IMG/VR virus record: IMGVR_UViG_3300025751_000141
Coordinates: 1-24,734 of that record
Length of the DNA stretch: 24,734 nucleotides
DNA from: a virus
Lineage: Duplodnaviria > Caudoviricetes
Direction: 5' to 3' (one strand)
Shown here: positions 2-24,734 of the stretch, piece by piece
How positions within the stretch are numbered: position 1 is the first letter of the stretch
Layout of the letters: each line of letters begins with the position of its first letter
Translations under genes and position numbers: made by a program
Notes under the pieces: model-generated
Databases searched by the model: none
Told to the model about the DNA's origin: nothing
Seen by the model: only the letters and a program-made list of their open reading frames with translations

Positions 2-478
2 GTCTTTGTACTGCCTTAATCCATGCGAGGGCACGCCTTTAGTTTCGAGGTACGGATGAATGTCACACTCCGCCGCCCGATCCCACATGGTCTGTGCCTT
101 CTTGGCAACGACACTCTGCTCGACCTCCTGCGCCAACCGGGCTTGTTCCTTCGCCCTCTCAATCTCCTCCACCTGCGCCTTAGTCAGCTTCGGAATCTCG
201 CCACCCTCTGCCTTCCAAGCCCCGAGCGGACCGATGTCATAACGCTCTGCGTGACCATACGGACGGTCTTGATCAAACCACACTTGATACCATGCGTTTT
301 GTTTGCGACGACCATCCATCACCGTGTAGGCCCGTCCTATCTCTCCTCCAGTGACCAAACCCTTCTTCGGGTCTGGCTCTACACCAAGCGCACCTAACCA
401 GTCGATGAACTCCCGATGCAAATCATTGGATAGAGGTCGACTAAAATTTTTTGTACCGCTTTTTATCTTCATTGCCAT
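2..478 (-). CDS. DNA primase, Toprim/TraC-like (N-terminal 159 aa; runs off the left edge)
   Basis: Not in the ORF track. Manual translation from ATG 478 (GGAGGGG SD upstream) gives MAMKIKSGTKNFSRPLSNDLHREFIDWL...NAWYQVWFDQDRPYG...AKKAQTMWDRAAECDIHPYLETKGVPSHGLRQYKD with no stop. The 'A..W..A...HPYL..KGV..GLR' pattern precedes the Toprim domain in TraC-like phage/plasmid primases. Confidence 0.75.
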   Translation of the reverse strand, partial: MAMKIKSGTKNFSRPLSNDLHREFIDWLGALGVEPDPKKGLVTGGEIGRAYTVMDGRRKQNAWYQVWFDQDRPYGHAERYDIGPLGAWKAEGGEIPKLTKAQVEEIERAKEQARLAQEVEQSVVAKKAQTMWDRAAECDIHPYLETKGVPSHGLRQYKD

Positions 479-6596: not shown

Positions 6597-6868
6597 AGCT
6601 ATTCGGCAAGCAGAAGCAGATTCCCCAGACTTATCGCCCGGTTATGGAGGCGCAAGAAGTCATTGATCTGTTTAGCCGTATGACCCTACATCAACAAGCC
6701 GCGCTCATGCGGCTCATGAGTCGTAATCTGATCATTGAATTGCCGGGTGACTCGGCAATGGGGTACGAGCTCGATTGGAACGTAGATGGTGCTTTGATTG
6801 CCGCCTTCCCAGCGCAACCAGAAGAATCTACGCCATCAATCCAGCTATCCCCTGCTGACGACGCATAG
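6593..6868 (+). CDS. Hypothetical protein (91 aa) coupled to the RHH gene
   Basis: GGAGG SD and GTGA overlap with the RHH stop; overlaps the convergent late gene by 41 nt. Confidence 0.65.
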   Translation: MKLFGKQKQIPQTYRPVMEAQEVIDLFSRMTLHQQAALMRLMSRNLIIELPGDSAMGYELDWNVDGALIAAFPAQPEESTPSIQLSPADDA

Positions 6869-9377
6869 CTATCTCCCGGTCTTCTTCGGAGGGGAGAAGG
6901 CTGGGGGATAGCGGCGTTGTTGGTAGCGTCGAAGGTGCCGGAACATCCGGTAAAGGCGCAAAATAAGCACCCATACTTAGGTCGATAGAATCCGATACAG
7001 ACGGCTCTGCGGCCTGCTCTTCGAGCTCACGCATACGTCGTCGCAAATCAAGATTCTCATCTCCCATCGACTCAATCTGACCTTCGGGCCCAAACTCGGT
7101 GGGCTCTAAGGCTTCAGGCATATCAACACCACGAGCCGTAGACTGAACGCCCATGTAAATATATGGGTTGATTCTGTCGATCGCCTCACGAAGCTCTAAC
7201 GCTTTCTTTGGATCGATAATCGCTTGGATCAACGCATCCTCATAAGCTTCTCGCTGAAACCCAATGGCGGCTTGAGATAGATCATCAAAACCACGGATAA
7301 GAATGCGCTGTGGCACTTCTACGATCGCTCTGACTGCACTAATGACAGGACGCGAAAGACCAGAAGATTCTGCCTCAGCCCGACGCATCAAAGCCAGAAG
7401 CGGTTGAGTCGGAGACCCGCCTTGCGTAGCGATGTAACTAATGGCCTGTGTAACCTGCAAAGCGTCTTCAAAGGCCGCAAATTCTTCAGGGCTCAGAATC
7501 TCTTTGAACGCATCGATCTTGCGTGAGCGCCTCTTAACGCCTCCACGGCCTGAGAAAGCTCGGTTAGGGTTCCGTATACCTATCCTTCTCAAAAACTTGT
7601 TTGGCACTCCAAACGGGTCTGTGGTGCCCATAATGACGTCATCAAGCTGAGTCCGTAACCAGTCAGCCTTCAAGTTTTGCCAAACGCGAGGATCTTCGGT
7701 CTGGACCAAACGACGCAAACGACGCAACTCTTCTGCCGTAGCTTTGCCCGTAAACATTTTTTGAACCAACGGCGCGGCGGTCGCGCCACCTTTATCTACC
7801 GCTTCGGTCAAGTTCTTTAGCAAACCACGCTCAAGGATCTGAAGGTGACCTTTCTCGGGGTCGTAGATACGAGCGGCACGAGCATAGATGGGGTTGTTCG
7901 CTTTTATCGCGTCACTGATTTGACCTTTATAATTGGCAACAACACTAGCGATCTTGCCGCCTTCGGACGTAGCCTTTGTTTCATACAAAGCACGAAGATC
8001 CTCGGTCACAGCGTTATGCAGTGCACGGGTCTCGCTTTTAAATCCGGTAAGTGATGTGCCTGTGGGGTCAACAATAGTTTTGTAGATCTGAGCCAGAGCG
8101 GCGCGCATTTGGTCGCCCGTGTCAGGATCATCCATTTTTTGCTTAATAGACTTACCGATATCACTGATATCAATGAGTGGCGCAAAACCCATTTGCCCAG
8201 ACCTTGCAAAGTCATCAAGCGCAAACGCTTCTTCATAAACCTTGTTGGCTCTTTGCTGACGCTTGTCTGCCAGTTTTTTGATGACTGATTGAGTAGCTTC
8301 CGCCAAGTCCATTTCTGGAGTTACCGAGCCTGTTGTCGGCATTCCCTGCATCCGTGCGCCAGTCTGCCCAGTAAGCATTTTTCCGGCCTGAATCTCATCA
8401 AAGAATTCGTTGAGCGCGTCCTCCATTCGCAGTGCTCGATCGTTGTAGAAATCGAACAGCTTTTGCGATGACGGTTGCATCTGAAGATATCGCTGAATCT
8501 GACCAGCATTAGTTTTTATTCCCTGCGCTTCGGCACGAGTAAGCGTGATGCCAAACTTATCGTCGGCCATAGCAATGATCTTGTCGACATCCTCCCCACC
8601 TTCGGTGAGCAAGGTGCGCAACATATTCCTGCCGTCCTCGCCAGCAAAGTCGGTGCTAACCTTATTCAGGATTGGCCTCCCGCCACGGAAAAAACCAGCG
8701 CCCAACGGAACGGAGCCAAACGCGCTGTTGACCAGAAGGTCATTGCCTAGCTGTCCGACGTTCAAAGGTGGTCCGTCAAACGCGGCACTGATACCCGCTC
8801 TACCTGCGGCGCCTGCGCTACCACCCAAGGCAGTGCCGCCAGCACCTCCGGCCATCGCTCCCGGTAAGCCGCCTGAGAGCGCTCCAAAACTAAGACCTGC
8901 GGCCCCTAAAGCCATCTCTGGCACAAACTGCAAGGCCGGTCCTACAAGCCCATAGGTGTCCATTACAGTGCCAAACAAGCCGTCCTTAAATTCTTTGTTG
9001 ATCTCTCCCGTGTACGGGTCCATATACGCAAGATCATTGTCCTCGTCGAGGAAGTAGTAATCCGACAGATTGACTGAGTCCGCAAGCTCCGGGAATCGCT
9101 TTTCTGCGAGCCACTGCGCTTGATACGCCTGATCATTCGACATACCTGCAAGCAATGCTCGGAGCGCGCCAGACTTATTAGCGTCCGCCATTTCACGCAT
9201 CTCAGCTTCGCTTTCTAATGCGCGCAGATCTCGGGCGCCCATCTGCATGACTCGGCGTTGATGCTCGTCGCCCATGCCGTTGTTGTTTTCGGCTATGTCA
9301 CGACGCAGACGCTCTGCTCCTTCGTCACTAGAAACCGTGTATTCGACGCCGTCAATGTTTACTTGCTTTGCCATCAA
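6828..9377 (-). CDS. Putative internal virion/DNA ejection protein (849 aa)
   Basis: Large helical protein ending the late operon after the tail nozzle. Has a Gly/Ala-rich hydrophobic segment (MALGAAGLSFGALSGGLPGAMAGGAGGTALGG) and ends GIAGLMA. Confidence 0.65.
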   Translation of the reverse strand: MMAKQVNIDGVEYTVSSDEGAERLRRDIAENNNGMGDEHQRRVMQMGARDLRALESEAEMREMADANKSGALRALLAGMSNDQAYQAQWLAEKRFPELADSVNLSDYYFLDEDNDLAYMDPYTGEINKEFKDGLFGTVMDTYGLVGPALQFVPEMALGAAGLSFGALSGGLPGAMAGGAGGTALGGSAGAAGRAGISAAFDGPPLNVGQLGNDLLVNSAFGSVPLGAGFFRGGRPILNKVSTDFAGEDGRNMLRTLLTEGGEDVDKIIAMADDKFGITLTRAEAQGIKTNAGQIQRYLQMQPSSQKLFDFYNDRALRMEDALNEFFDEIQAGKMLTGQTGARMQGMPTTGSVTPEMDLAEATQSVIKKLADKRQQRANKVYEEAFALDDFARSGQMGFAPLIDISDIGKSIKQKMDDPDTGDQMRAALAQIYKTIVDPTGTSLTGFKSETRALHNAVTEDLRALYETKATSEGGKIASVVANYKGQISDAIKANNPIYARAARIYDPEKGHLQILERGLLKNLTEAVDKGGATAAPLVQKMFTGKATAEELRRLRRLVQTEDPRVWQNLKADWLRTQLDDVIMGTTDPFGVPNKFLRRIGIRNPNRAFSGRGGVKRRSRKIDAFKEILSPEEFAAFEDALQVTQAISYIATQGGSPTQPLLALMRRAEAESSGLSRPVISAVRAIVEVPQRILIRGFDDLSQAAIGFQREAYEDALIQAIIDPKKALELREAIDRINPYIYMGVQSTARGVDMPEALEPTEFGPEGQIESMGDENLDLRRRMRELEEQAAEPSVSDSIDLSMGAYFAPLPDVPAPSTLPTTPLSPSLLPSEEDREIAMRRQQGIAGLMA

Positions 9378-10840
9378 TAGCCTCGCTCGGTCATATCTTC
9401 AGAGCCCGTGTCCCCAAACTGTCGCCGGTAACTGGCGGCAACCTCGGGCTCGTTTGCCGCAAACTGACGAAGCTCTGCGAGTTCTGTGGGATCTAAGAAA
9501 GAATTGCTTTTTTGCCAGTTGGCATACCACTGGTTATAAGCGGACGCTCGCTGTACATCGTTTAAAGACGGATCGCCAAGCTGGTTTTGCAAATTTTCAT
9601 TGGAGTAAAAATCGTTCGCCAGCTTGACGTTCAAGTCTGCAATGCGCTTTAGGTACTCTGACTGTTTAAGCAAACCACCCTTCGATGAGGCTAAGCCGGG
9701 AGATGCCGCAATAAACAGGCGCATCTCCATCTCAGTAATCGCGCCCTTGGTATCGCCAATCAACTGCATAGCAATACGAGTGCCTAGCGTGTTCAAAAGC
9801 TCTTGGTCACCAAGTTTGCCGTCATACCGAATACCCATATCGTTTAATAGTTTTCGGAACGGCAAGGTTTTCGCTTCGACTACGCCAACATTTTCACCCA
9901 ATCGAGACAGCGCAACCTGCATCATATTGATTAATCGCTGTTGTTCTACACCCGCGTTTCTTGCCTCTTCGATTCCGACAATGGAGTCGTTAAGACTTTG
10001 GCCCCGACGCTCCATAAACTTAGATGGGTCTGGCTGGGTGATGTTGACTTCTGTTCCTGCGGAAGAAGCTCGTCGTGCATTAGGCAACAACCGCACAGCG
10101 GCGACCTCAAGCTTATTGTTCTCATCGACCGGCACCGTCACTTGACGTGTTTCGCCAGTCACAGGATCAACTTCGTCGTATACATAGTTTTGCATTTTAG
10201 GGTCTTTGTTGGATAACTTAATCCGTTCCAACGAAACCTTGTTGAGGTAATCCTCAGCGGCATTCTCGTCTTCGCGAGCCATCTCAAATGCCTTTAGTGC
10301 TACTGCTTGATCGACCTTACGCTTATCCTCACGCTGTTTGCGCAATCGCTTGTGAAAGGCAATGAAGCCAGCCGCAGAACTTGCAAACGGGCCTGTATCT
10401 GCCGGAGCGGAAATCATAGCCTCGCCAAGTTCGGCCGCAAGATCATAAAGCGTAGGGCGCTCACTTTGAGCCATCAACGGACCAAGGCGCCGCTTGTACT
10501 CGTCATATCGGTCGGTGAAGGTGCGGGTTTTTTTCTGCTCTTCACTCTCTTCTTGCGGCGCTGGCTTAGCCTCAGAATTAGCCGCCTGCTCAAGCAACTC
10601 GTCAAGATCTGGCAACGCAAACGGATCGTCTTCATCCTCTTCTGCAAGAGTGAACCCAGACATATCAAGCGTTGGAGGCGTTAGCGTTGGCGCAGTTGGT
10701 AGCGGTTGCATACCCATAGGAATCGGAGGGATTGCGAAAGGGTCAACGGTAGGCTCGCTAAATATATCAAAATCATCAACACCGCCGCCAAGGGCAAGGC
10801 CTCTAATCTGCTCTTCCATTTGTGCTCGTGAAATAGCCAT
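9374..10840 (-). CDS. Putative internal virion/ejection protein (488 aa)
   Basis: Position among the ejection genes; N-terminal MAISRAQM..QI leader, LALGGGV, Pro/acidic linker, then a helical domain with KGAITEMEM.LF..ASPGL. Confidence 0.6.
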   Translation of the reverse strand: MAISRAQMEEQIRGLALGGGVDDFDIFSEPTVDPFAIPPIPMGMQPLPTAPTLTPPTLDMSGFTLAEEDEDDPFALPDLDELLEQAANSEAKPAPQEESEEQKKTRTFTDRYDEYKRRLGPLMAQSERPTLYDLAAELGEAMISAPADTGPFASSAAGFIAFHKRLRKQREDKRKVDQAVALKAFEMAREDENAAEDYLNKVSLERIKLSNKDPKMQNYVYDEVDPVTGETRQVTVPVDENNKLEVAAVRLLPNARRASSAGTEVNITQPDPSKFMERRGQSLNDSIVGIEEARNAGVEQQRLINMMQVALSRLGENVGVVEAKTLPFRKLLNDMGIRYDGKLGDQELLNTLGTRIAMQLIGDTKGAITEMEMRLFIAASPGLASSKGGLLKQSEYLKRIADLNVKLANDFYSNENLQNQLGDPSLNDVQRASAYNQWYANWQKSNSFLDPTELAELRQFAANEPEVAASYRRQFGDTGSEDMTERGY

Positions 10841-13545
10841 TAGGGTCCTCCTCTCAGGCCGGGTGGCGGTGGCGTCTCAATCGGAGTTTGATAGAATTGA
10901 TTTAATTTCGGCGTAAATTGTGGTTGCGCAGGACCACTAGAGTATTGCTGTGTTGGCACGGCTTGCTGTGGCTGGTTGAAGTACGTCCCCAAAGCTCCGA
11001 GCGCACTCAATCCAGTACCTAATCCGGCTTGTAACGGGCTAGGTGGCGGCGTGTACTGCGTTTGTACTTGGCTTGGCCCAGTCTGACCGGCCGCAAACTG
11101 CATGAACGGTAGGAGCTGTTGATACTGAGCGAGCGGCGCCTGCTGAGCCTGTAGCAATCCAGCACGTTGTGCATCAAGCATTTGCTGACGCTGTTGCTGT
11201 TGCATTCCACCGATACCCATTAAGGCCTGCACGTCCTGCTGTCCAGCCTGAGCAAACTGTCCACCAAGCCCTTGCAACTGCTGACCGTAGCCCTGCATAG
11301 CTTGACCGACCTGCTGACCATACTGACCCTGTACACCGCCAAGCTGACCATATCCCTGAGCCAATTGACCGGCAGTACCAAGCGCCTGCTGACCTGCGCC
11401 CATACGAGCCTGCATACCTTGTTGACCAAGCTGGCCCATGGTTTGCCCAAGCTGTGTGCCTGCGCCATACATCTGCTGAGCTTGTTGTCCTAACAAGCCG
11501 CCAAATTGCTGTTGCGCACCAAGACGTTGTCCTGCGGCGCCCATCTGCTGACCGGCAAGCTGTTGCTGAGAACCAAGCTGTTGCCCTGCTAGTCCCTGCT
11601 GGAACTGACCGAGTTGCTGTCCTGCGCCCAATCTCTGCTGTGCCATCTGTTGTTGCTGAGATGCTAACTGCTGTTGGCTTTGTAGTTGCTGAGCGGCAGT
11701 TTGACCAAGCTGGCCCTGTAATGCCTGCCGAGCACCAAGCTGGCCTTGAGCCGCCGCCATCTGCTGAGACGTAAGCGCCTGACCGGCGCCGAAGCGCTGA
11801 CTTCCTACTGCGGCCAGTCGGTTGGCTAAGCTTTGCTCTGCCGCCAATCTTTGCCCTGCCTCTTGGCCCATTTGCCCAGTTAGTGCCTGCTGTGCGCCTA
11901 ATCGCTGTTGTGAAACATCACCTAGACGTCCAGCCATTCGCTCACCAGACGCGGCTAACTGCTGTGCTTGTGAGCCCAACTGCCCAGCCAATGCTTGGCC
12001 TGCACCAAATCTGGTTTGCGCGCCACTACCTAGCATTTGTGCCGCGCGCTCCTGAGCGCTTAGTCTTTGACCGCTTAATCCGGCGAGGCCAGATGCGGCC
12101 GCTCTTTCTGCGTCACGTTGCCGAGCAAACTCACCCATAGCGCTCTGCTGAGCTCTCTGGAAGCCGCCTGAGCGTATTCCGGCAAGTTCTTTTGCCAATC
12201 CACGCCCTAACGCTTCTCTCCTTTCTCCGGCAGTTAAACGAGCCCTAGAGCCGAAAGCTGACTCTCCTGCTGTTTGCACATCTCGTGCTTGCTGAGCAAT
12301 ATCTGCTTGAGCTCCAGTTTTCATCATGTCGTCAATGGTTTGCTGAACGACACGATCTTCGTAGGGATCGTAAAACTGCTGTGTCATTGAAGGGTCAAAG
12401 CCGCCAGTTGTTCCACGAAGCAATTGCTCTGACTCTCCGAGCCTTCCGCCGAACTCTTGGGTTGCGCCAAGCTGTCTTTGCTCTGCGGCACTCAAGCCCC
12501 GACCCAAGCCTCGGGCCGCACCAGCAAGTGTGCCAGTGGCACGACGCAAGCCTTGTCCAAGACCAGCTTGAGCCATTCTCTGTTCACCAATACTTTGCCC
12601 AAGACCTCGATCAAACTGACCAATTCCTTGGCGAAGTTGTTGCGTGGCTTGACCAATGTCTTCACCAAACCTACCAACAGCTCCTCGCTCCTGCCCAAGA
12701 GCCTGAGACAACTGCTGGTCCAACTGTTGCTGTGCGGTCTGTAGCCCACGAGTAGCCTGTCCAACCCCCTGACCGAATTGTTGCTCACCTTCACGGGCCA
12801 AAGCATCAACACCCGACAATTGGCGCCCAAATCTGTCTGTAGCCGCCGCACCTCTGCCAAAGGCGCCGCTCAAATCACGGCCAAATTGCCCCGTTAGACC
12901 GGCTTGTTGTCGGCCCAACTGCTCGGCTTGTCCGCCAAAACGATCTGCCGCGCCGCCTAATGTTGCGAGGCCCTGATCAAGGCCGCCCTCAAACTGTCCT
13001 AATGCTCTTTGCTGAAAACCGCGTTGCTCGCCCAAGCCTCTTCCAAGCTGGCCAAACGCACCCTGTGACAGTGCGCGTTGCTGACCAATACCCCGTAAAG
13101 CATCGGATAATCCTGCACGTCTTTGAAATCCCTCTTCTGCCGCACCGCGCTGTAACTGACCCAAAGCCTGTCGTTGGGAGCCTAACTGCTGTTCCGCTCC
13201 CCTCTGGATTGCACCCAAACCCCCACGATACTGCTCTTCTGCTCTGCGCAAGAAGGGCTGTAAGCCTCCAACTTGCTCGCGAGCCAGTTGCATCGCGCCA
13301 ACTTGGTCTGGAGAGAATCCAGCAATTTGCTGAGGTATAACGATGGGACGTCCCTGTTCATCAAAAAAGGTACGCTCTGCGGCGCGCATCGCTCCGGGAA
13401 TAAAGCCGCCTTGACCGCCCAAACCAAACAGCATTTGCTGAACAATAGGGTCCATCTGGCGTTCTTGCCGGGTCACTCCGGCGACGTAAGGGCCTGTCGA
13501 CCCTCCATCTTGAAATTTCTTGATTCTCTTAGGGGGCATTATCAT
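10840..13545 (-). CDS. Gln/Gly/Ala-rich DNA pilot/ejection-type protein with 18-residue repeats (901 aa)
   Basis: IAGFSPDQ, FYDPYEDRVV and AFGSRA motifs; two long 18-periodic arms; C-terminal hydrophobic GLGTGLSALGALG. Confidence 0.68.
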   Translation of the reverse strand: MIMPPKRIKKFQDGGSTGPYVAGVTRQERQMDPIVQQMLFGLGGQGGFIPGAMRAAERTFFDEQGRPIVIPQQIAGFSPDQVGAMQLAREQVGGLQPFLRRAEEQYRGGLGAIQRGAEQQLGSQRQALGQLQRGAAEEGFQRRAGLSDALRGIGQQRALSQGAFGQLGRGLGEQRGFQQRALGQFEGGLDQGLATLGGAADRFGGQAEQLGRQQAGLTGQFGRDLSGAFGRGAAATDRFGRQLSGVDALAREGEQQFGQGVGQATRGLQTAQQQLDQQLSQALGQERGAVGRFGEDIGQATQQLRQGIGQFDRGLGQSIGEQRMAQAGLGQGLRRATGTLAGAARGLGRGLSAAEQRQLGATQEFGGRLGESEQLLRGTTGGFDPSMTQQFYDPYEDRVVQQTIDDMMKTGAQADIAQQARDVQTAGESAFGSRARLTAGERREALGRGLAKELAGIRSGGFQRAQQSAMGEFARQRDAERAAASGLAGLSGQRLSAQERAAQMLGSGAQTRFGAGQALAGQLGSQAQQLAASGERMAGRLGDVSQQRLGAQQALTGQMGQEAGQRLAAEQSLANRLAAVGSQRFGAGQALTSQQMAAAQGQLGARQALQGQLGQTAAQQLQSQQQLASQQQQMAQQRLGAGQQLGQFQQGLAGQQLGSQQQLAGQQMGAAGQRLGAQQQFGGLLGQQAQQMYGAGTQLGQTMGQLGQQGMQARMGAGQQALGTAGQLAQGYGQLGGVQGQYGQQVGQAMQGYGQQLQGLGGQFAQAGQQDVQALMGIGGMQQQQRQQMLDAQRAGLLQAQQAPLAQYQQLLPFMQFAAGQTGPSQVQTQYTPPPSPLQAGLGTGLSALGALGTYFNQPQQAVPTQQYSSGPAQPQFTPKLNQFYQTPIETPPPPGLRGGP

Positions 13546-15611
13546 GCGACGGCCTCCGGCTCTTCCGCGAATTCCTTAAACAAGCCCATCATGTCATACA
13601 TTAACTTGGTTCCTCGGTCACGATCTTCACCGTTCTTTGGAGTCAATGTAATAATGCCGTTCTTGTTTTTCATATTAAACGCGCCAGCCCCTCTAACTGC
13701 GCGTCCGGTCATTACAAACTCTCCATCGGAGAGCATCGCAGGAATGTCGTCACTGACCTCGGTGCCTTCACCGTTGATGTCACCATTCATGCGTTTAAAG
13801 TCTTGCTCGTCTACATTACCGCCCTCAGCAAAAGCCATCACAGGACCGCCATACCGCATTCCTGTGGCCTTCTGCGCTTCAAGCCCAGCTTGTGCCGTAG
13901 TAGGTGCTCGTCCGCCACTCAGGGTTGGTAAAGTGCCCTGCGGCAACAATCCGAACTCAACTGGATTTGGGGCGGCTGTTCCGCTTCGGCGAGCAATTTC
14001 GTTTTCTAAATTAAACCGGCCAGCCGCATTCATTACGACAGAAGGTGTCAGAGGCACGCCCTTACGATCCTTAGCCTCGTCGTATGCAAGTTTGCCTATC
14101 AAACCAGCAAGGCCAGCCGCGCCAAGGGCGCCCATATTTAGGCCGCTACCGCCACCGCCACCAAGCAAGCCCGCAAGGCCTCTGCTTTGTTGTCCTTGTG
14201 TTGCTGGCGCTCCGTTCATACCCAACATATCTTTTATGGAGTCTTCGATGCCTCGAATTGCGTCGGGAGTGCGCATCCCAAAAAAGCTACCGCCTTGTTG
14301 TTGAGATCCTGCTTGCGACGCCTGAAACTCAGGGAGCCCCATAAGCTGTGCGGCTAATTCGTCCTCTGTTACGCCGGAGGCCAGCATAGCGTTAATACCG
14401 CCGCGTTGATCAGGGAATTGAGCTAAGTAGTTTTCAATGATTGTAATCGAGTCCTCTGATCCCATAGGCATAGCACCGCCGCCCATGCCACCCATGGCAT
14501 CAACCACCTTCATGAATCCGCCGCCAGAGCCTCCATAACCCATCTGCTCAACTTCGCTAAGAATGTCGCCCATCGATTTACCAGAGCTGACGCCAGCCTC
14601 AACGATTTCGTTGATCTCTGGATTATTAACGCTCAACTGACCAAGAACGGCGCCCGGATCTCGCATAGATGCGTAATCAGTAACACCCAAAGTGTCGCCA
14701 ATTCCGCCAGCAAAATCGCCTAATTTTCCAAAGCTACCAACGCCGTCAGCACCGCCGCCCGTCACCAAGCCGCTGACATTGCGCCCAAGACCGCTAATTC
14801 CTTTGCCGATGTTTCCTAACAATCCAACGCCGTCAGCACCTTTAGTTACAAACTCTTTCGCGCCGCTAAATAAGCTTCCGATACCGCCACCGTTACCGCC
14901 ACCGGGGATTGGAGCGCCTAAAGAAGCCAGTGCCAATGGGCTTGCCCTTCCTTTAGCTACATCGTAGACCGTACCGGCTTTATTGATAATTGCGGCAAAG
15001 GGTTGCCATGGTCCGGGGATGAACTGGGCCACAGACGCGATAGGACGGACAACCTTTTTTACAACCTTCTTAACGCCCTTGGCTATTTTTTTAAAAAAGC
15101 CAAACTCTTCTAACCCCGTGATGGGGTTGAGGGAAGCAATGCCTAAACCCGCCACATACTCTTCAGGAGCAAGGTCCAATTGATTAAATCTATTTTCAAC
15201 GACACGCTCAAACTCTGGGTCATCCATCATGCCAAGCGGCAAAATTACTTCGCCGGGCGTGAGGTGGGCCAGCATGGTGTCACCACCTCTGCCTGCTTCA
15301 GAAAGCTCCATCGCCATTGTGCCCATGGGCGCCTCTGAGCCGATTTGTGCGGCCTCCATAAGCTGTTGTGCTTTAGCGGCTTCAAAAGGGTCGTCTGCGG
15401 TTTCCTGAGCCATCATTAGCTCTTCCATGGCGGCGCGTAGCTCAGCATTTGGGTCAGTAACAGGCTGGCCCATGGCCATAGAAGCTTCAGCCATGGTTTC
15501 CGGGTCATCAATATCAAAGACCTCACCGCCTTGGGCCATCATCATAGGGTCGTTATAGGTGGGCTCTGGACCCATCAAGTTGGCTATTCTTTGCTCTAAA
15601 AACTGGTTCAT
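13542..15611 (-). CDS. Putative ejection protein with tape-measure-like GE-x-V domains and an amphipathic helix (689 aa)
   Basis: GDTMLAHLTPGEVILP...NPITGLEEF-GFFKKIAKGVKKVVKKV near the N-terminus; Gly-rich middle; FAEGGNV...GEGTEVSDDIPAMLSDGEFVMTGRAV near the C-terminus. Confidence 0.68.
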   Translation of the reverse strand: MNQFLEQRIANLMGPEPTYNDPMMMAQGGEVFDIDDPETMAEASMAMGQPVTDPNAELRAAMEELMMAQETADDPFEAAKAQQLMEAAQIGSEAPMGTMAMELSEAGRGGDTMLAHLTPGEVILPLGMMDDPEFERVVENRFNQLDLAPEEYVAGLGIASLNPITGLEEFGFFKKIAKGVKKVVKKVVRPIASVAQFIPGPWQPFAAIINKAGTVYDVAKGRASPLALASLGAPIPGGGNGGGIGSLFSGAKEFVTKGADGVGLLGNIGKGISGLGRNVSGLVTGGGADGVGSFGKLGDFAGGIGDTLGVTDYASMRDPGAVLGQLSVNNPEINEIVEAGVSSGKSMGDILSEVEQMGYGGSGGGFMKVVDAMGGMGGGAMPMGSEDSITIIENYLAQFPDQRGGINAMLASGVTEDELAAQLMGLPEFQASQAGSQQQGGSFFGMRTPDAIRGIEDSIKDMLGMNGAPATQGQQSRGLAGLLGGGGGSGLNMGALGAAGLAGLIGKLAYDEAKDRKGVPLTPSVVMNAAGRFNLENEIARRSGTAAPNPVEFGLLPQGTLPTLSGGRAPTTAQAGLEAQKATGMRYGGPVMAFAEGGNVDEQDFKRMNGDINGEGTEVSDDIPAMLSDGEFVMTGRAVRGAGAFNMKNKNGIITLTPKNGEDRDRGTKLMYDMMGLFKEFAEEPEAVA

Positions 15612-15919
15612 GATGTCGTTACCGTTACGGCTCCCACTGTTGCCAACACGCCTATGCCTGTCGGGTAGGTCTGATGATCGTATAAGTCTCTAAATTGTAC
15701 CCCATCAAAAGCCTGATGAATTGAATTAGTAGTATTGAATATGATAGCGCCCGTGGCAAATTGTAATTCAGAGATCTCCGTCGCGTTAAAATGCGGCGAA
15801 ATACTGAAATTAACCCCACCGAGGTTAAGCTCAAGGACCCGGATAAGCCGGTTAAACGTATCCGAAGATACCGTTTCGCCCTGCGAGAACGGTAGCCGGG
15901 TGGGTAATAACACGCTCAT
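15608..15919 (-). CDS. Small tail-associated hypothetical protein (103 aa)
   Basis: ATGA-coupled on both sides. GAIIFNTT....QAFDG resembles a fibre-type repeat unit; ends VGAVTVTTS. Confidence 0.65.
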   Translation of the reverse strand: MSVLLPTRLPFSQGETVSSDTFNRLIRVLELNLGGVNFSISPHFNATEISELQFATGAIIFNTTNSIHQAFDGVQFRDLYDHQTYPTGIGVLATVGAVTVTTS

Positions 15920-17814
15920 GCACGTCTACCACTTGGCTGTAAGTCAAGGCGAGTCGCTCCAACTCGCCACTTATACCCCTTCTGATCCACTGCGGAAGCA
16001 TCGTCATCACTTTCAAATCGGAGGACTATCTGCCTGCCGCGCGTCCTAACGCTCTTAAATGTCGTTGTTTGCGTAATCTGGTTTGTACTGTCCGTTATTA
16101 AAGACTGTCCCGGAAACTCACGGCGCTTAAGGACAATGTTCATGACTGGGTTTGTGCTCACGCCTGTCTCAATAACAAAAGCCATATCCGGTATGAGCTT
16201 CTTGACGAAAGCCAAGCTGTCGCCAGAGCTTATGTCAATGTCAGCCGACTCTATGTAAACGCCAGTCATAGCATCTTCATAAGCGTCAAACCCGGTCTCG
16301 TGTTGAAAAATGCACTGCTGAGACGAGCTTTCCGCCGACGCAAAAGGAAGGTCTTCAATACCCGCATCAAGCCATGCGTAACGAATCAAAGAACCAATGG
16401 ACCAATGGTTTTCTTCGTAGTTGTAAATTACATAACGCGAGACCTCACCCGTGCCATCTTCGATGCTCGGGTAGAAGAACCACACCTCGCCAAACTCTGA
16501 GTTGACGCCCATGTGGCACTTAAATGCTTGACCTAAGTCTAGGTCGTTAAACACGTACTCCTGAACCGAGCAGGGAAGCTTCTGCACCGAGCCGTTGTAG
16601 AAGTAGAAACCAGTCTTACTCGCGAAATACACACCGTTTGGTGCGTTACAGGCCGCTTTGGGACCGACAAGACCGGAGCCTTCGTTGACCAAGTTCATCG
16701 CAAAGGTCAGGGGAGGGCCAATAAATGTCATCGAATATAGACTCGTGTCGGTCCATATCAAGACCTCTTGCCGAGACTTGATGCCGCCGACAATGAACGA
16801 GCCGCTAGACAAACGCACATCGCCAGCGCTGTTAGTCGCCGTGGGCGTAAAATCCAGATCATTTTCGGAGTCTGAGAAAGCGACCAACATAGGGTCAATA
16901 ATGCCTGTCCGTGTGCCCCCAACCAAGGGATCAACGCCCATGCAAATCAAGTGCCGGTTGGTCTCTGACGTCAGTACCTGCAAAGCAACTGTTGGTACGC
17001 CACTTGCACCGGCCTGCTGAGAAAGCTCCTGCGCTCTCACAGTAACGCCATTGTTTTCTACCCAACGGTAAATACCACCACCGCGCGGGTTAATAATTAG
17101 GTTCTCACCGTAATTGTCGTGCGTCCAAAGACGTAGCTGTCCAGCCGCAGAAATGGCGCTAGAAGAGCCCCAGCCGCCAGCTCCCCACGTACCAACGCCC
17201 CAACCCGTGGACTTAACAAAGGTGTCAAGGCCAACATTTATTTGATATGCGCCCACAACCGATGACCCACCGTTGCCACTATCACTGCTATTCGCCGTAA
17301 CAGTAGCGCCGCTCGTGTCTTTAGCGACTAGCTCATAGGTATTTAAGCTCGTTACGAGGCTGATTTGATACTCTTGGTTAAGCACTTCTGCCGTAATGTT
17401 ACCTCCAAGGGTAGAGGCGCCACTAAAAGTAACAAAATCATTGCTGACAGCCCCATGATCCGTGTCAGTCACTGTGATCGTAGAAGATCCGTCTGTGGCG
17501 CTGAAAGTAACGTCGCCAGCAGAGGTGGTAAGTCTTATCGGGGTGATGTCGTTGAACGACTCACCCTCCTCGATGTAATACTTGAAGGTCGTGCCCAGTC
17601 CCAGAAAACGAGTGCCGCCGAGAGAAATCCAACTATGAAGAGCGCGAGCAAGCCCAAGGTAATAACTGCTACCAAGCTTATTCCAGCCGCCAACCTTTTC
17701 CACGCGGCCTTTGCGAAATCTAATGAGGTTTCCGTCCACCCAGCCACCTTTGGCCGCATAGTCAGTCGACTCCTTGTCAATCCCCGGCTGAAATTCTATC
17801 GTCTGTAACGGCAT
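15916..17814 (-). CDS. Tail nozzle / packaged-DNA stabilization protein (P22 gp10 / T7 gp12-like)
   Basis: 632 aa, beta-rich. N-terminal PGIDKEST.Y...GGW.DGN.IRFR.G..EK.GGW, propeller-like segments (IWTDTSLYSM.FIGPP, EVWFFYPS, YVIYNY.E..W), C-terminal R.RGRQ...RF...G..R.D..P.GRR. Confidence 0.72.
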   Translation of the reverse strand: MPLQTIEFQPGIDKESTDYAAKGGWVDGNLIRFRKGRVEKVGGWNKLGSSYYLGLARALHSWISLGGTRFLGLGTTFKYYIEEGESFNDITPIRLTTSAGDVTFSATDGSSTITVTDTDHGAVSNDFVTFSGASTLGGNITAEVLNQEYQISLVTSLNTYELVAKDTSGATVTANSSDSGNGGSSVVGAYQINVGLDTFVKSTGWGVGTWGAGGWGSSSAISAAGQLRLWTHDNYGENLIINPRGGGIYRWVENNGVTVRAQELSQQAGASGVPTVALQVLTSETNRHLICMGVDPLVGGTRTGIIDPMLVAFSDSENDLDFTPTATNSAGDVRLSSGSFIVGGIKSRQEVLIWTDTSLYSMTFIGPPLTFAMNLVNEGSGLVGPKAACNAPNGVYFASKTGFYFYNGSVQKLPCSVQEYVFNDLDLGQAFKCHMGVNSEFGEVWFFYPSIEDGTGEVSRYVIYNYEENHWSIGSLIRYAWLDAGIEDLPFASAESSSQQCIFQHETGFDAYEDAMTGVYIESADIDISSGDSLAFVKKLIPDMAFVIETGVSTNPVMNIVLKRREFPGQSLITDSTNQITQTTTFKSVRTRGRQIVLRFESDDDASAVDQKGYKWRVGATRLDLQPSGRRA

Positions 17815-17823
17815 ACCAAGGCA

Positions 17824-18252
17824 TCACGCAAGCCGGATAATTGCACCCGTTGCCGTAGGCGACGGAAATACAATTGTGAAATTGCCTGCCGTGCTGGTTT
17901 TATCCCCTCCAAAATCAATCGCGGCTACTGATTTATCTGATTGCGTGTCGTTGTATATTAAACAACCGCGAGCCGTAACCGTAGCGGTTCCAAACGTCAG
18001 GTCTGCAAAATCAACTATCGCAGTCGTTCCAGACGTAGTGGGGGTGACATTGGTAAGCGCATTACCGCCAGCCGTGTAGTTTGTGCCAGAAACCTCGTTT
18101 GTGGTTGTGTACGCGGTTGTGGAGGCGCCGAGAGTCGCAGAGCTGGTATACAAAGCCAGCTTAAATGTGTTGCCTGAGCTGTTAGTGAAGTTGTGAGTGC
18201 CTACTAACAATTCCTGCTTAAACGATGTACAGATCGCCGATGTGATAGCCAT
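17824..18252 (-). CDS. Tail structural protein (142 aa, Thr/Ser-rich beta protein)
   Basis: FK.ELL...FKLALYT...NEVSGT.Y.AGG.L...DFAD..F...ARG.LIYN...DFGGDK...F pattern typical of phage tail proteins. Confidence 0.7.
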   Translation of the reverse strand: MAITSAICTSFKQELLVGTHNFTNSSGNTFKLALYTSSATLGASTTAYTTTNEVSGTNYTAGGNALTNVTPTTSGTTAIVDFADLTFGTATVTARGCLIYNDTQSDKSVAAIDFGGDKTSTAGNFTIVFPSPTATGAIIRLA

Positions 18253-18253
18253 T

Positions 18254-18544
18254 TTATAGCTCCTTCAGTAAGTCAGCCATTTGGTTATGACCTTGACGCC
18301 TTAGAATAACCGATAAAGTAGTACGGTCACTAGCAATGGCGCTGTTAATCCCCCTCAATACTACTTCATAAACTTGCTGTCGGAAAGCCTCGGCTTGTTG
18401 CCTAACGTGAGGATCGGCGTTTTCTGAAATGCTAACAAGCCTATCTGTGACAATTTTTGCCCAAAAATCAGGATCGTGGCCGCCATCGTTGGATGTCGCC
18501 ACCATAACGCTTCCCAGTCCAGAGTCCGCACTTTGAGAAATCAT
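18254..18544 (-). CDS. Conserved hypothetical protein (96 aa)
   Basis: Coupled into the late operon (ATGA overlap); mostly helical after an N-terminal SGLGSVMVATS strand. Confidence 0.7.
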   Translation of the reverse strand: MISQSADSGLGSVMVATSNDGGHDPDFWAKIVTDRLVSISENADPHVRQQAEAFRQQVYEVVLRGINSAIASDRTTLSVILRRQGHNQMADLLKEL

Positions 18545-19263
18545 CCTTTGTACGGCTCCGGCGCTGAAGGCATTTCTATCTGCTTAAAGTTAAACTGCCT
18601 GCGAGCCTCGTCAAATTCTGACTGAGGGCAAACCATAAACTGGCCTTCTTGATCTGTCATGACAAGCATTGGATCATCTAGCCGATGGTAGCCATAGAGG
18701 CGTTCTGCTGGTACGACGTTGCTATCCAGTAGAGCTGACTTCTGGCTTACACCCACACCCACTCCCTGCGAGATACATCGAGAGACCCAGAACTCGACGC
18801 ATCCTCGTCCTGCTTCTGCAAAATGCAGGTTGTGTTTGTAACTAAAATCCATGCCAAACAGATCGATATGAGCCACTTTATTGTAGAGCGCGTACGCCAT
18901 TGCGTACGCCACAGTGTTGTTGAGATAAGCGCACCGCTGATCATCAATCACATCCTTAATGGGGTACTCAACGATTGCCGGTACCCGCTCATCAAGCTCG
19001 CACGAATAAATAGGTTTATCAAACGTAGGCAGTAAACGACGCATGACGTCAGTCTGGCCACCCGCATCTTCCGTGTCCAAGTACCGGGACGCAGGGTCCA
19101 GCATAAACACACGGTCACAATCAAAAACAGATAAGGCGGCGTTGATACACCATACCTCATCCCACTGCTGACTGTTTTCTACTCCAATTACGTAGTCAAT
19201 TTGAGAAGCGCCAAGGCCTATCAGGGCGACTCTGGCCCCCTCCAACTCCGGTATGCGTGACAT
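18541..19263 (-). CDS. Glycosyltransferase-like protein (GT29/GT42 sialyltransferase, Maf/DUF115-type fold)
   Basis: VALIGLGAS...VWCIN...DRVFMLD...NTVAYAMAYA...IDLFGMDF matches the I.G.G.S / N / D / I.L.G.D motif order of this fold. Confidence 0.55.
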   Translation of the reverse strand: MSRIPELEGARVALIGLGASQIDYVIGVENSQQWDEVWCINAALSVFDCDRVFMLDPASRYLDTEDAGGQTDVMRRLLPTFDKPIYSCELDERVPAIVEYPIKDVIDDQRCAYLNNTVAYAMAYALYNKVAHIDLFGMDFSYKHNLHFAEAGRGCVEFWVSRCISQGVGVGVSQKSALLDSNVVPAERLYGYHRLDDPMLVMTDQEGQFMVCPQSEFDEARRQFNFKQIEMPSAPEPYKG

Positions 19264-19910
19264 TAACTAACACCTGTTCTCAACAAGTCATATCTATATT
19301 CATCGCGAGTAGCGCGGCCTTCGCTCACGTTCTTCATTCTCGCGATCCCCTCCTTGAATCGAGTCTCAAACGTCTGAATAACGTCTGGAGCCTCTTTCAG
19401 GAATATCGCCGCCTCGACCAAGGTTCCATACAGCAAAGGATCTGGATGGTCCGTAGACAAGACAGTGGTTCCTGAATCTGCACCCGCCGTCAATGAGGCT
19501 GGCTTGTAAAGATAGTGAAGCTCCACCGAATAACCAGAATCCGGTATAGGCGACACTTCAAAAGCCGTCTCATCAAACAATGAGTAATACTTTGGTTGTG
19601 CTGTGGTGGTTGTTACAGGGCTGTACTCTTTGATGAAAGATGGATGTTTGTAGTCCAAATAATAATATCTGTCACCACTAATTACAGCCAAAGAAAAAGG
19701 CGCAAAAAAGTCAGACGGGGTCGCTAAAAACCGATTTCCGGTGGTCAGTGTTCCTGTGACGTTCTTACGTTGCTCGGGCAACTGCACAAGCTTGAAAATA
19801 CGGCTTTCTGCTTCCTCAATAAATGTGTTGAGGTTGTTGTTGAAGGTTGTTTCGTCAACCTGCAAGTAGTCTTGTACCGTCGATTTTAGGGTGGCTAATG
19901 TAAAACTCAT
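19263..19910 (-). CDS. Head-tail adaptor / tail tubular protein A-like (215 aa)
   Basis: Helical N-terminus (FIEEAESRI), beta core (PSDF, PKYYS.F, PIPDSGY.VELHY) and helical C-terminus (LLYGTLVEA..FLK). Confidence 0.7.
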   Translation of the reverse strand: MSFTLATLKSTVQDYLQVDETTFNNNLNTFIEEAESRIFKLVQLPEQRKNVTGTLTTGNRFLATPSDFFAPFSLAVISGDRYYYLDYKHPSFIKEYSPVTTTTAQPKYYSLFDETAFEVSPIPDSGYSVELHYLYKPASLTAGADSGTTVLSTDHPDPLLYGTLVEAAIFLKEAPDVIQTFETRFKEGIARMKNVSEGRATRDEYRYDLLRTGVS

Positions 19911-20230
19911 GACGTGGTCACCTCAACCGTGCCTAATCCACTGTTTATTTGATAAGTCGTAAGCTGTGTGCCTAGTATACCTTGACCCACATTCGTGTAG
20001 ACAGTAAAAAAGTTTCCGTCGTTACCGTCCGCCGCCTGATCAATTCGTGGATTTTTTAAAGCTTCAGGATCAACTGGTGTAGGTTTTGGCATCAACTGAG
20101 GATGCTTTGGAGACCATTGATCAGGTCCCACGAGCAACCCATCCCAAGTCTTTTTCATGTCCTTGAGCCGATAGCGGAAGCCCGTTATGTCACAGATCCC
20201 GTAAGCTCGCTTGTTAGATGCGAAGGCCAT
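19907..20230 (-). CDS. Conserved small virion-associated protein (107 aa)
   Basis: GICDITGFRY...W.GLLV......KHPQL...DPEAL.NPR; coupled on both sides; ends GLGTVEVTTS. Confidence 0.7.
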   Translation of the reverse strand: MAFASNKRAYGICDITGFRYRLKDMKKTWDGLLVGPDQWSPKHPQLMPKPTPVDPEALKNPRIDQAADGNDGNFFTVYTNVGQGILGTQLTTYQINSGLGTVEVTTS

Positions 20231-20925
20231 TATGCTATGTCGTAACTTCTGGTGTCAGGAGCAATGCGGAAGCTTGATCGAGGCTCGTCTTGAGAGAGTG
20301 CTCGCAAAAACTCCTCTTCATAAAGCTGTTTAAGAAGTTGCACTTTTTCAGGCGCTCTTTTAAGGGCGAGATAATACGCAAGTCCTGCCGCAAGGCACGG
20401 ATAAAACCGAAATGGGACTTCCATGGTATTTACGCCAACGTCCGCATCATCCATGCGAGTAAGCACGTTCATGTACACGGTATAGGTTGAGCTCTTGTCT
20501 GGCACAGGCCAAACGGTAATTGTAGGCGTCAACTGCTTGTCAATTAGATATTGGTTTGGCTTTCCTGTCGTCGACTTCGTCGCTAAGTTTGCATACTCAG
20601 CACGAGACATACGGCTTAGCGGAATGTCAGTTGTTGTCCCCTGCGAGGTTTCTCTAATAAATACGTCTAACACGTCAATTGTCGCGGTAGGATCACTTGA
20701 GTCAATATTGTATTTACCCGTGCTTTGTACCATAGGGACGGTCTTTTCTTTGATCGTCCATTGATTCAATCCGCGATTAGCCCACTCGGCCAGCATAAGG
20801 TTCAAAGATCTCTGAGCTGACTTCAAGTCATAACCCGTTCTAAGCTCTAAGCCACAACGCTCAAAAGCCTCTTCAACGTAGTCGGCTACGTCTAACTCGA
20901 AATCTTTACTCCCGCTCGTCGCCAT
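20230..20925 (-). CDS. Second head-tail adaptor / tail tubular protein A-like (231 aa)
   Basis: Start moved to MATSGS (20925). EEAFERCG...RSLNLMLAEWANRG, GKPNQY, VWPVPD...Y, P.RF.PCL.AGLAYYLA.K; same helix-beta-helix layout as 19263-19910. Confidence 0.7.
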   Translation of the reverse strand: MATSGSKDFELDVADYVEEAFERCGLELRTGYDLKSAQRSLNLMLAEWANRGLNQWTIKEKTVPMVQSTGKYNIDSSDPTATIDVLDVFIRETSQGTTTDIPLSRMSRAEYANLATKSTTGKPNQYLIDKQLTPTITVWPVPDKSSTYTVYMNVLTRMDDADVGVNTMEVPFRFYPCLAAGLAYYLALKRAPEKVQLLKQLYEEEFLRALSQDEPRSSFRIAPDTRSYDIA

Positions 20926-21601
20926 TTTCTGCACCCGCGTATAAGTTGTCGAACACTTGGTTCACGTCCAAGGTGTAGTCTAAGTCAGATTTGCTGTAAT
21001 GGATATGCTGGGAAGGCCTAAAATCTGGGGCGCCATCACCTAGCTCGAACTGCGCAGGTCGCGTTACTCTTACTCGGTTATTAGGTAACGCAACAATATT
21101 ACCCGTCCACTCCCCCGCATCGAGCAACTCCAGCACATGGCTTTGCTTGTGTTGTGCAGGGTCGTCCGCCGTATCTGACTCGGTATAATCCACAGTAAAG
21201 TAGTATTTTGCCGGGTAAAACTTGCCATCAATTTTTGCCATCCAAGGGCATGGGTCACAGTTTTCTAACTTGTAGACGCTGTGGGTTCGAGATGCGCAGT
21301 CCCACGGCTGTGCCGCCCAAACAGGCATTGGCTCAGCCCATTTATCGAAGGGGGTGTCCCCCACGAGAGCGGTGATAGGCATACGAGCCCACATTGCGCC
21401 CCCGTGGAGGTTCGGCTCATCGGTATCGTAAGTCTCAGCCCCGGTAAATATGACCTGAAAAGACAGGCATCGCTTGGGTAGCGTCGTGACACCGATGACC
21501 ATGGCATGAAGAAATTCGCCATGGTATTTCTCGTGATTGTGCGTGTACTCTTTTCTGACCCAGCACTTAAAGTACGGGATGCTGGACTGGAGAAATGCCA
21601 T
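20906..21601 (-). CDS. Conserved phage hypothetical protein (231 aa)
   Basis: Well-formed ORF coupled by TAATG; globular, aromatic/His/Cys-rich (GAMWARMPI, QPWDC.S, HKQSH, PNNR.R). No function recognised. Confidence 0.75.
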   Translation of the reverse strand: MAFLQSSIPYFKCWVRKEYTHNHEKYHGEFLHAMVIGVTTLPKRCLSFQVIFTGAETYDTDEPNLHGGAMWARMPITALVGDTPFDKWAEPMPVWAAQPWDCASRTHSVYKLENCDPCPWMAKIDGKFYPAKYYFTVDYTESDTADDPAQHKQSHVLELLDAGEWTGNIVALPNNRVRVTRPAQFELGDGAPDFRPSQHIHYSKSDLDYTLDVNQVFDNLYAGAENGDERE

Positions 21602-22077
21602 TATCGGCCATATAGTCCGCTGTTTTTGTTTGAAGGAGCGCGCACTGAATTAGACGTGGCTTTGCTCTTCATAGCGCCGCCAGCGGCCTTTCCCTTAGCT
21701 TTCATCATGCCAGATCCGGGTCTTCCTACAGCAATCATAACTTGCGTTGCGTCTTCTTTATTGCCAGCGCCACCTTTAGCGTAACCTTTAGTCTTCATTT
21801 TCATGATTGAGCCTCCCTCGGCCGCAAACGTACTTACATTAGTGGGCTTACCACCCACACCTTGCTTTTTCGCTCGCTTGCGCCTGACGGCGGAAGCTAC
21901 TTGTTTCTTTGACATCTTTGCGGCCTTAGCCGCAGGCACACATTTCGGATAGTCACGATCTGAATCATCGGCGCTTTGGCGGCCACACTTTTCATAGCCG
22001 CCGCCCTCTTTTGGGGCGCTAATATCAACCCAGTTCTCGCTTCCGAACCAGTCTTTAAGTCCGCGTTTTTTAGCCAC
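21601..22077 (-). CDS. Basic protein (DUF5872-like N-domain) with a Lys/Gly-rich tail carrying three xAxGG motifs
   Basis: GL..WF..ENWVDI...CGR...YPKCVP..KA..M...AVRRKR; the family name is from recollection. Confidence 0.6.
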   Translation of the reverse strand: MAKKRGLKDWFGSENWVDISAPKEGGGYEKCGRQSADDSDRDYPKCVPAAKAAKMSKKQVASAVRRKRAKKQGVGGKPTNVSTFAAEGGSIMKMKTKGYAKGGAGNKEDATQVMIAVGRPGSGMMKAKGKAAGGAMKSKATSNSVRAPSNKNSGLYGR

Positions 22078-22354
22078 GAGGCACTCGCACAGTTCTACGC
22101 TTGTTTTGCATCATAGCGCCACAACCCCGAGGTTGCATCTCCACAGAGCCGCCTGTATTCATTTTTTTAGCTTTGACTTCTCCGCCAGTCGCTTTTTTGG
22201 CGCCTTTATATTCTCCTCCCATGCGCTGATACTCTTGCACCATAAATCCGTTTGCGTATGCGGAAGGATATACCTCAAATTTAGCCTTGGCCTTAGCCTT
22301 AGCTTTTTTATAAATTTCGGGGTTAGCGACGTTGTCTGGTATTTTGCTTGCCAT
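22070..22354 (-). CDS. Small basic protein (DUF5872-like) with two xxTGGxV motifs
   Basis: NP..Y.KAKA.AK.KF.VYPSAYANG..V.EY..MGG.Y, then KATGGEV, MNTGGSV and RGCGA. Confidence 0.6.
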   Translation of the reverse strand: MASKIPDNVANPEIYKKAKAKAKAKFEVYPSAYANGFMVQEYQRMGGEYKGAKKATGGEVKAKKMNTGGSVEMQPRGCGAMMQNKRRTVRVPRG

Positions 22355-24732: not shown

Positions 24733-24734
24733 GT

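Follow-up and report, generated by a model that had tools for sequence, protein, structure and literature searches.

In phage T4, unrelated internal proteins share a transferable N-terminal capsid-targeting leader followed by a putative cut site, and cleavage by gp21 is Glu-based; in adenovirus and ASFV, maturation proceeds by cuts made after Gly-Gly by a viral cysteine protease. The tape-measure protein gpH of phage lambda is reported to yield products of ~14 and 78 kDa, the site and the enzyme being stated as unknown in the accessible part of the report (PMC12617516). For T5 pb2, a cut after R1127 is given in the accessible part of one paper (PMC10038345); according to that of another, the site is disputed, since trypsin too cuts at R1127 and V1148±1 had been given by earlier work (PMC11937520). 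In P22, a 20-residue leader of the ejection protein gp7 is removed by the host enzyme OpdA to leave a new start, Lys-Gly-Gly; the accessible text describes this leader as almost non-essential (60% burst) and loading as independent of it (PMC8402733). The portal-bound piece of the crAss001 protein gp45 that was resolved by cryo-EM comprises residues 425–552, and in the accessible text of that paper cleavage is unmentioned and gp45 is modelled intact (PMC10172136).

The DNA analysed here, referred to as the window, is a stretch of 24,734 nucleotides (IMG/VR record IMGVR_UViG_3300025751_000141), a virus record that is 47% complete. The phage is a marine short-tailed phage (podovirus) of the HTVC023P/DSL-LC04 type. 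A tail stabilisation protein is indicated for its 632-aa gene by matches in DSL-LC04 (38.9%), CRP-901/902, HTVC023P/027P and MinM2, with two SU10-type adaptors upstream; the late operon is closed by genes for 689-, 901-, 488- and 849-aa proteins, at the place where DSL-LC04 annotates a DNA-transfer protein, and by this position the four are probably ejection proteins. The 689-aa protein (13542..15611; this and all following window features lie on the minus strand) is encoded by the first gene of the cluster and is an orthologue of the DSL-LC04 759-aa protein (E 9e-82) and of HTVC027P gp82 (5e-9). The Gly/Gln-rich 901-aa protein (10840..13545) is a homologue of a 294-aa DSL-LC04 protein (E 4e-15), and the 488-aa protein (9374..10840) is the product of the third gene, its likely role following from its place after the tail stabilisation gene; neither of the two matched a Pfam or PHROG family. 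The genes for two basic proteins of 158 and 94 aa (K+R 0.21–0.22), the latter a DUF5872 protein, are located between the capsid and adaptor genes.

Ten copies of a short double-glycine peptide, here called the tag, had been noted in these five late proteins by the initial annotation, and all ten are found at the residues given there (window 10778–22195). LALGGGV occupies aa 15–21 of the 488-aa protein (10778..10798), FQDGGST aa 11–17 of the 901-aa protein (13495..13515) and MAQGGEV aa 25–31 of the 689-aa protein (15519..15539), which also has the tandem tags MRYGGPV (aa 585–591) and FAEGGNV (aa 594–600) at 13812..13859. AAEGGSI, YAKGGAG and KAAGGAM are located in the basic tail of the 158-aa protein (21670..21825), and KATGGEV and MNTGGSV in the 94-aa protein (22142..22195). 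The literal pattern xAxGGx[VI] fits only five of the ten, and it also fits AAKGGWV in the 632-aa tail protein, kept in 6 of 23 orthologues, and KAEGGEI in a primase fragment (194..214). The statement that the tag is missing from replication proteins is therefore false, although the primase site is a chance match that none of five orthologues keeps. The C-terminus of the 849-aa protein (QQGIAGLMA, 6831..6866) ends in some orthologues as GGIASLA; this site is unscored and weak, and the protein is a possible, worn sixth carrier. The C-terminal LLPSEEDREIAMRRQQGIAGL segment of the same protein (window 6831–6900, minus strand) is kept even where the bodies of the orthologues differ, and GIAGL/GLAGL-like stretches recur in the 689-aa protein. 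Just beyond the window, FMRTGGI in an 864-aa protein was discarded: it fits the strict pattern, but its matrix score (see below) is below -2. That protein is a coiled coil with internal tandem repeats (window 22354–24734, minus strand; full gene L001:2867–5461), in which a PAGTAGIKPLP segment is repeated near both ends; the slot of its gene is filled by very different proteins in relatives.

To score the sites, a matrix was trained on 111 sites that flank a module of tape measures (described below) in 16 tape-measure-like proteins of 1400 aa or more. Of the 97 GG sites in 32 window proteins, the top 12 include nine of the ten tags (all but KAAGGAM). With a threshold of 2, the five tagged proteins have 7 sites against 0.71 expected (P≤0.001, 1000 local shuffles), a test that is independent for four of them and not for the three sites of the 689-aa protein, since the training proteins were found with the module of that protein as query. 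By the same matrix and shuffles, 11 other late proteins have 1 site against 0.63 expected, and 16 early proteins 1 against 0.19. A loose pattern gives only 10 against 4.9 (P 0.03), and the Gly content of the carriers is 6–18%. The enrichment over a shuffled null on which the proposal had been made to depend is thus present.

Most of the ten sites are also kept in position among orthologues, the other point on which the proposal had been staked. The tag of the 488-aa protein is found at the aligned place in 11 of 12 non-redundant orthologues, with GG in 15 of 18 orthologue starts of the family, and that of the 901-aa protein in 11 of 18, several orthologues being without the entire leader. MAQGGEV, MRYGGPV and FAEGGNV are kept in 30, 26 and 33 of 33 orthologues, the flanks of MAQGGEV having an identity of 0.33. 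The three sites of the 158-aa protein are kept in 21, 3 and 9 of 27, respectively; two of the three are poorly placed because the tail is a variable tandem repeat, which in relatives forms a separate or a fused protein with up to nine ten-residue repeats. In the 94-aa protein the values are 13/25 (KATGGEV) and 23/25 (MNTGGSV), and QRMGG, which is not among the ten, is equally conserved (22/25 by the loose pattern). Single tags are kept in module-free proteins while their flanks diverge. Tiny basic proteins consisting almost entirely of ten-residue tag repeats, with up to nine copies, were observed at L089:2381–2602 (minus strand), L161:3637–3960 and L170:3337–3660.

The distribution of the tag was examined in five cultured phages, with protein classes assigned by position and annotation and totals that exclude CRP-902. 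Unassigned proteins of the head region contain 11 sites against 0.8 expected and proteins of the ejection cluster 9 against 3.1; folded structural proteins (12 against 6.1) and early proteins (6 against 2.3) are also above the null. CRP-902 has two tag sites in all and is not enriched, despite having the same head module, and some orthologues of tagged proteins do without the tag. These counts indicate that the tag is concentrated in, rather than confined to, candidate internal proteins, and that a lineage can lose it. Among 17 genomes scanned with our own gene caller, two of them as 50-kb parts, six are enriched at P≤0.03 (ct7L0027, GB2A, PaP4, HTVC115P, DSL-LC04 and HTVC027P), two are borderline (MinM2 and G004) and nine are not enriched. 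The excess in PaP4 (7 against 2.1) was taken as chance, the sites being in a folded adaptor, early proteins and glycine-rich ends, and the words ‘cleav’ and ‘motif’ were not found in the Pa223 paper. In ct7L0027 the tags punctuate four large head-region proteins, which are likely to be modular cargo. These four proteins, between portal and GroES (L229:4316–12978), have peptidase M15 and restriction-enzyme-like labels. The terminase C-terminal FRQGG was rejected as a source of the tag: it occurs in 23 of 32 tails, but not in DSL-LC04, HTVC023P or ct7L0027.

The module has the pattern D..A.L(S/T).GE.V and is present twice in the 689-aa protein. The first, divergent copy (aa 103–139, 15195..15305) scores 48.8 bits with the core profile, whose training set included the family of this copy. 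The second (aa 612–649, 13665..13778) is homologous to tape-measure families (PHROG matches, E 1e-5 to 1e-4) and is common to siphovirus tape-measure proteins, 50 phage records having matched, mostly tape measures. In long tape measures each copy of the module begins with a tag and is usually followed by another; the C-terminal copy of the 689-aa protein is not bracketed in this way, with two tags before it and none after. Taken at the level of sequence, the tag is the same joint as that which flanks the tape-measure module. No Pfam family covers the module. A single-chain model has a pLDDT of 68 and is confident for the core only, the tags being disordered (pLDDT 37–44, residues 1–20), and it gave no fold match. 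The module was detected in 7 of the 17 genomes, all seven of which have at least a few tags. It was not detected in ct7L0027, with its 12 tags, which together with the disorder of the tags in the model led us to reject the module as an obligatory reader of the tag. No connection could be made between the module and ‘motif 2’ of mycobacteriophages. A LysM domain is seen in the variable middle of many orthologues of the 689-aa protein (P0002, P0047 and others) and fits a role in contact with the cell wall.

The tag of the 488-aa protein closes a leader, MAISRAQMEEQI (10805..10840), whose first seven residues are those of the major capsid protein start, MAISRAQLAKEL; both proteins begin with MAISRAQ. 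The capsid gene was read from contig L001 (leader at L001:534–570), which has four proteins in common with the window at 100% identity. M1, R5, Q7, Q11 and I12 are invariant in 18 orthologue starts of the 488-aa protein. In HTVC027P the leader is carried by the orthologue of the 689-aa protein, and in HTVC023P by a basic protein of 46 aa; in DSL-LC04 and CRP-902 no copy was seen other than that of the capsid gene. When 4 of the 64 parts of IMG/VR were scanned with a pattern, 122 loci were returned, of which 87 belong to one capsid cluster and 35 are non-capsid genes in 20 clusters. The members of these 20 clusters are mostly small basic late or ejection-type proteins, and past residue eight BLAST gave no link between the clusters; 16 of the 35 proteins also carry a loose tag. 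An origin at the DNA level was dismissed, as synonymous codons varied among the 35 genes. Within the window, only one of the five tagged proteins has the capsid-like leader.

No solved structure matching this capsid by sequence was found. In P22, the accessible parts of two reports state that the contact of the scaffold hook with the coat N-arm is made at acidic residues of the latter (PMC12005531) and that the scaffold is needed to load the ejection proteins (PMC8402733). The scaffold-like protein of the present phage family has a conserved basic segment at its end, and by analogy the leader may dock at the scaffold as the P22 coat N-arm does; what follows in many leaders is basic rather than acidic, and this speaks against pairing by charge alone. 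The capsid-mimic leader, which the initial annotation had missed, appears to be a better candidate for a loading address than the GG tag.

If the tag is a processing joint, the chain boundaries described for other phages are informative about its register. The 1219 aa of T5 pb2 contain only two A-x-G-G sequences, and residue 1128 is the Ala in one of them, a site that is weak on the tag matrix (-2.0). crAss001 gp45 (L382:1988–4516) has eight A-x-G-G sites against 2.06 expected (P~0.001), and its resolved portal-bound piece begins exactly at the Ala of one of them, A425, and ends before the next (560), a density boundary that is not proof of a terminus. The tail-bound piece (214–245) falls between sites 207 and 261, and none of the four gp45 mass-spectrometry peptides named in the accessible text spans a site; this layout suggests that gp45 may be processed, which is so far unreported. 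In lambda gpH, a cut before A718 would give products of 14.1 and 78.2 kDa; there are four other candidates after residue 650, and the two with the highest scores, 734 and 779, give 12.5 and 7.7 kDa. A proposed cut at 1066 in JBD30 was set aside as a prediction only. Since the T5 pb2 and crAss001 gp45 boundaries fall there and one lambda gpH site fits the masses, a cut before Ala is the best reading; compared across the three phages, the boundaries favour it, with proof in none and none from this phage. They lend support to the processing half of the initial annotation. Its proposed loading or maturation signal holds up as a shared signal on likely internal proteins, given the enrichment and conservation, but not as a cut after Gly-Gly, the boundaries being before Ala. 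Its remark that no such system was characterised in podoviruses needs a caveat in P22 gp7, with its leader cut by OpdA, but the gp7 site fails the tag motif (score -14, register one residue before GG). In the literature searched, outside the scope of which most subscription papers lie, neither the tag nor the leader was found to be described.

In a scan for a cutter in the complete relative G004 (~78 ORFs, the small early ORFs being outside the scan), no protease family was found among the 31 proteins compared with PHROG and the 32 compared with Pfam; a 71-aa basic protein weakly matched the first 51 positions of a PHROG protease family and is too short for an enzyme. Of 23 genes compared across 15 genomes, none occurs in every genome with tags while being missing from those without. 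The 231-aa protein encoded next to the basic genes (window 20906–21601, minus strand) was rejected as a reader because it is absent from the tag-bearing DSL-LC04, ct7L0027, GB2A and MinM2. It is ~80% identical in relatives and absent from several family members; the Atlas returned only ‘PurM’-named clusters (0.81), and the library labels PurM and ferredoxin are without clear basis. Since phages whose head genes are unrelated have this joint in common, cleavage by a host peptidase or by the protein itself would be likelier than cleavage by a lineage-specific head protease.

The peptide is present, enriched, conserved and placed at the ends of leaders and the borders of modules. Our preferred explanation, which we hold to be evenly poised between right and wrong, is that the tag is a conserved joint on head-packed cargo and likely marks a cut just before Ala. 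The carriers would then be internal virion proteins that are cut in this register, and the cut would release leaders, modules and small basic peptides after loading. The 488-aa protein would be laid out as leader, joint and body, its leader docking at the site used by the capsid arm, on the scaffold or on an adjacent capsid subunit, and then being removed. Some tags are so near the C-terminus, within a few residues of it, that a cut there would serve no obvious purpose. The main rival, which we regard as doubtful, has the tag as an uncut docking handle for a head component (portal, scaffold or capsid wall) or for the module, with the repeat proteins acting as multivalent linkers. This would suit the tiny basic proteins with up to nine tandem copies and the copies at both termini, the fact that the gp45 piece starting with a tag is the portal-bound one, and, in the accessible text on P22, the recruitment of ejection proteins via the scaffold by their N-terminal parts (PMC8402733). 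However, tags occur in phages without detectable head-gene homology (HTVC115P; siphovirus tails), so that no single partner is evident; ct7L0027 is rich in tags with no detected module, the predicted model leaves the tags disordered on the module, and the T5 register is unexplained.

It is distinctly unlikely that the tag is a structural β-turn of the module, spread by duplication into linkers and repeats and lacking a common reader: proteins free of the module retain single copies between diverging flanks, and ct7L0027 is enriched without the module, even though in tape measures the module opens with the peptide, tandem duplication enlarges the basic tails and all seven module-bearing genomes have tags. 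Mimicry of the GroES mobile loop, by which the tag would hold cargo on the host chaperonin, is very improbable. The matrix scores the phage GroES loop, KSKGGIV, as a tag, GroES genes are present in 7 of the 15 phages compared, including most tag carriers, and a 1973 title speaks of a host role in T5 tail protein cleavage; yet the GroES mobile loop has a hydrophobic residue after GG, where tags usually have a polar one, CRP-902 has GroES without tags and HTVC115P has tags without a GroES match. Chance in glycine-rich, low-complexity proteins would account for the glycine content of the carriers, the modest excess by the loose pattern and the two matches in unrelated proteins, but is largely refuted by the count with the externally trained matrix and local shuffles and by the conservation, and its probability is close to negligible.

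An extension of the processing-joint reading, which we put forward tentatively, is that x-A-x-G-G, cut between x and Ala, is one cutting code of short-tailed, long-tailed and crAss-like phages that needs no dedicated head protease, and that this abundant marine family loads cargo by means of a copy of the capsid N-terminus grafted onto unrelated proteins. If this is true, sequence would suffice to recognise internal cargo and the fragments into which it matures, and direct tests become possible for the lambda gpH site (A718 or A734) and for a hidden processing of crAss001 gp45. The tag touches on how podovirus ejection proteins are selected and matured and on what cuts the lambda and T5 tape measures, and a shared register would give exact termini to expect in the cultured phages HTVC027P, DSL-LC04, crAss001 and lambda. 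With its 12 residues, the capsid-mimic leader is a well-defined candidate for a loading signal, and the marine phage group in which it occurs is very common, an estimated ~10,000 stored stretches matching the patterns of this capsid.

Compared with T4, the leader described here copies the start of the capsid protein itself, the site is Gly-based, and no head protease gene was seen among the G004 proteins scanned; compared with adenovirus and ASFV, no such protease is annotated in the same scan, and the boundaries in other phages are before Ala, two residues ahead of GG. P22 gp7 is similar in being a podovirus ejection protein with a leader near Gly-Gly, for which the accessible text names a host enzyme as the cutter, and differs in that the cut is one residue before GG, with no bulky-Ala pair and in one protein only; profiles of the 901-, 689- and 488-aa families gave no match to gp7. 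crAss001 cargo protein C1 (gp45; Pfam crAss_CARG1), whose portal-bound piece holds a GE.V stretch and starts at the joint, is the nearest named Atlas cluster, at a score of 0.83 that is a lead only; homology of the module to it was not detected (no match to PF25725, profile comparison probability 0.1), and in the accessible text it is described as uncut, unlike in the joint reading proposed here. The closest parallel is tape-measure processing in T5 (pb2* and pb2C) and lambda (gpH* and gpHC), where the same A-x-G-G joint is found beside the GE..V module, lambda gpH having FATGG and YATGG around it; unlike in these phages, the joint here is spread over several distinct proteins, in a short-tailed phage, and also occurs far from any module. 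The locus presents the tag joint on probable podovirus cargo and a capsid-mimic leader on the 488-aa protein, the leader being new here.
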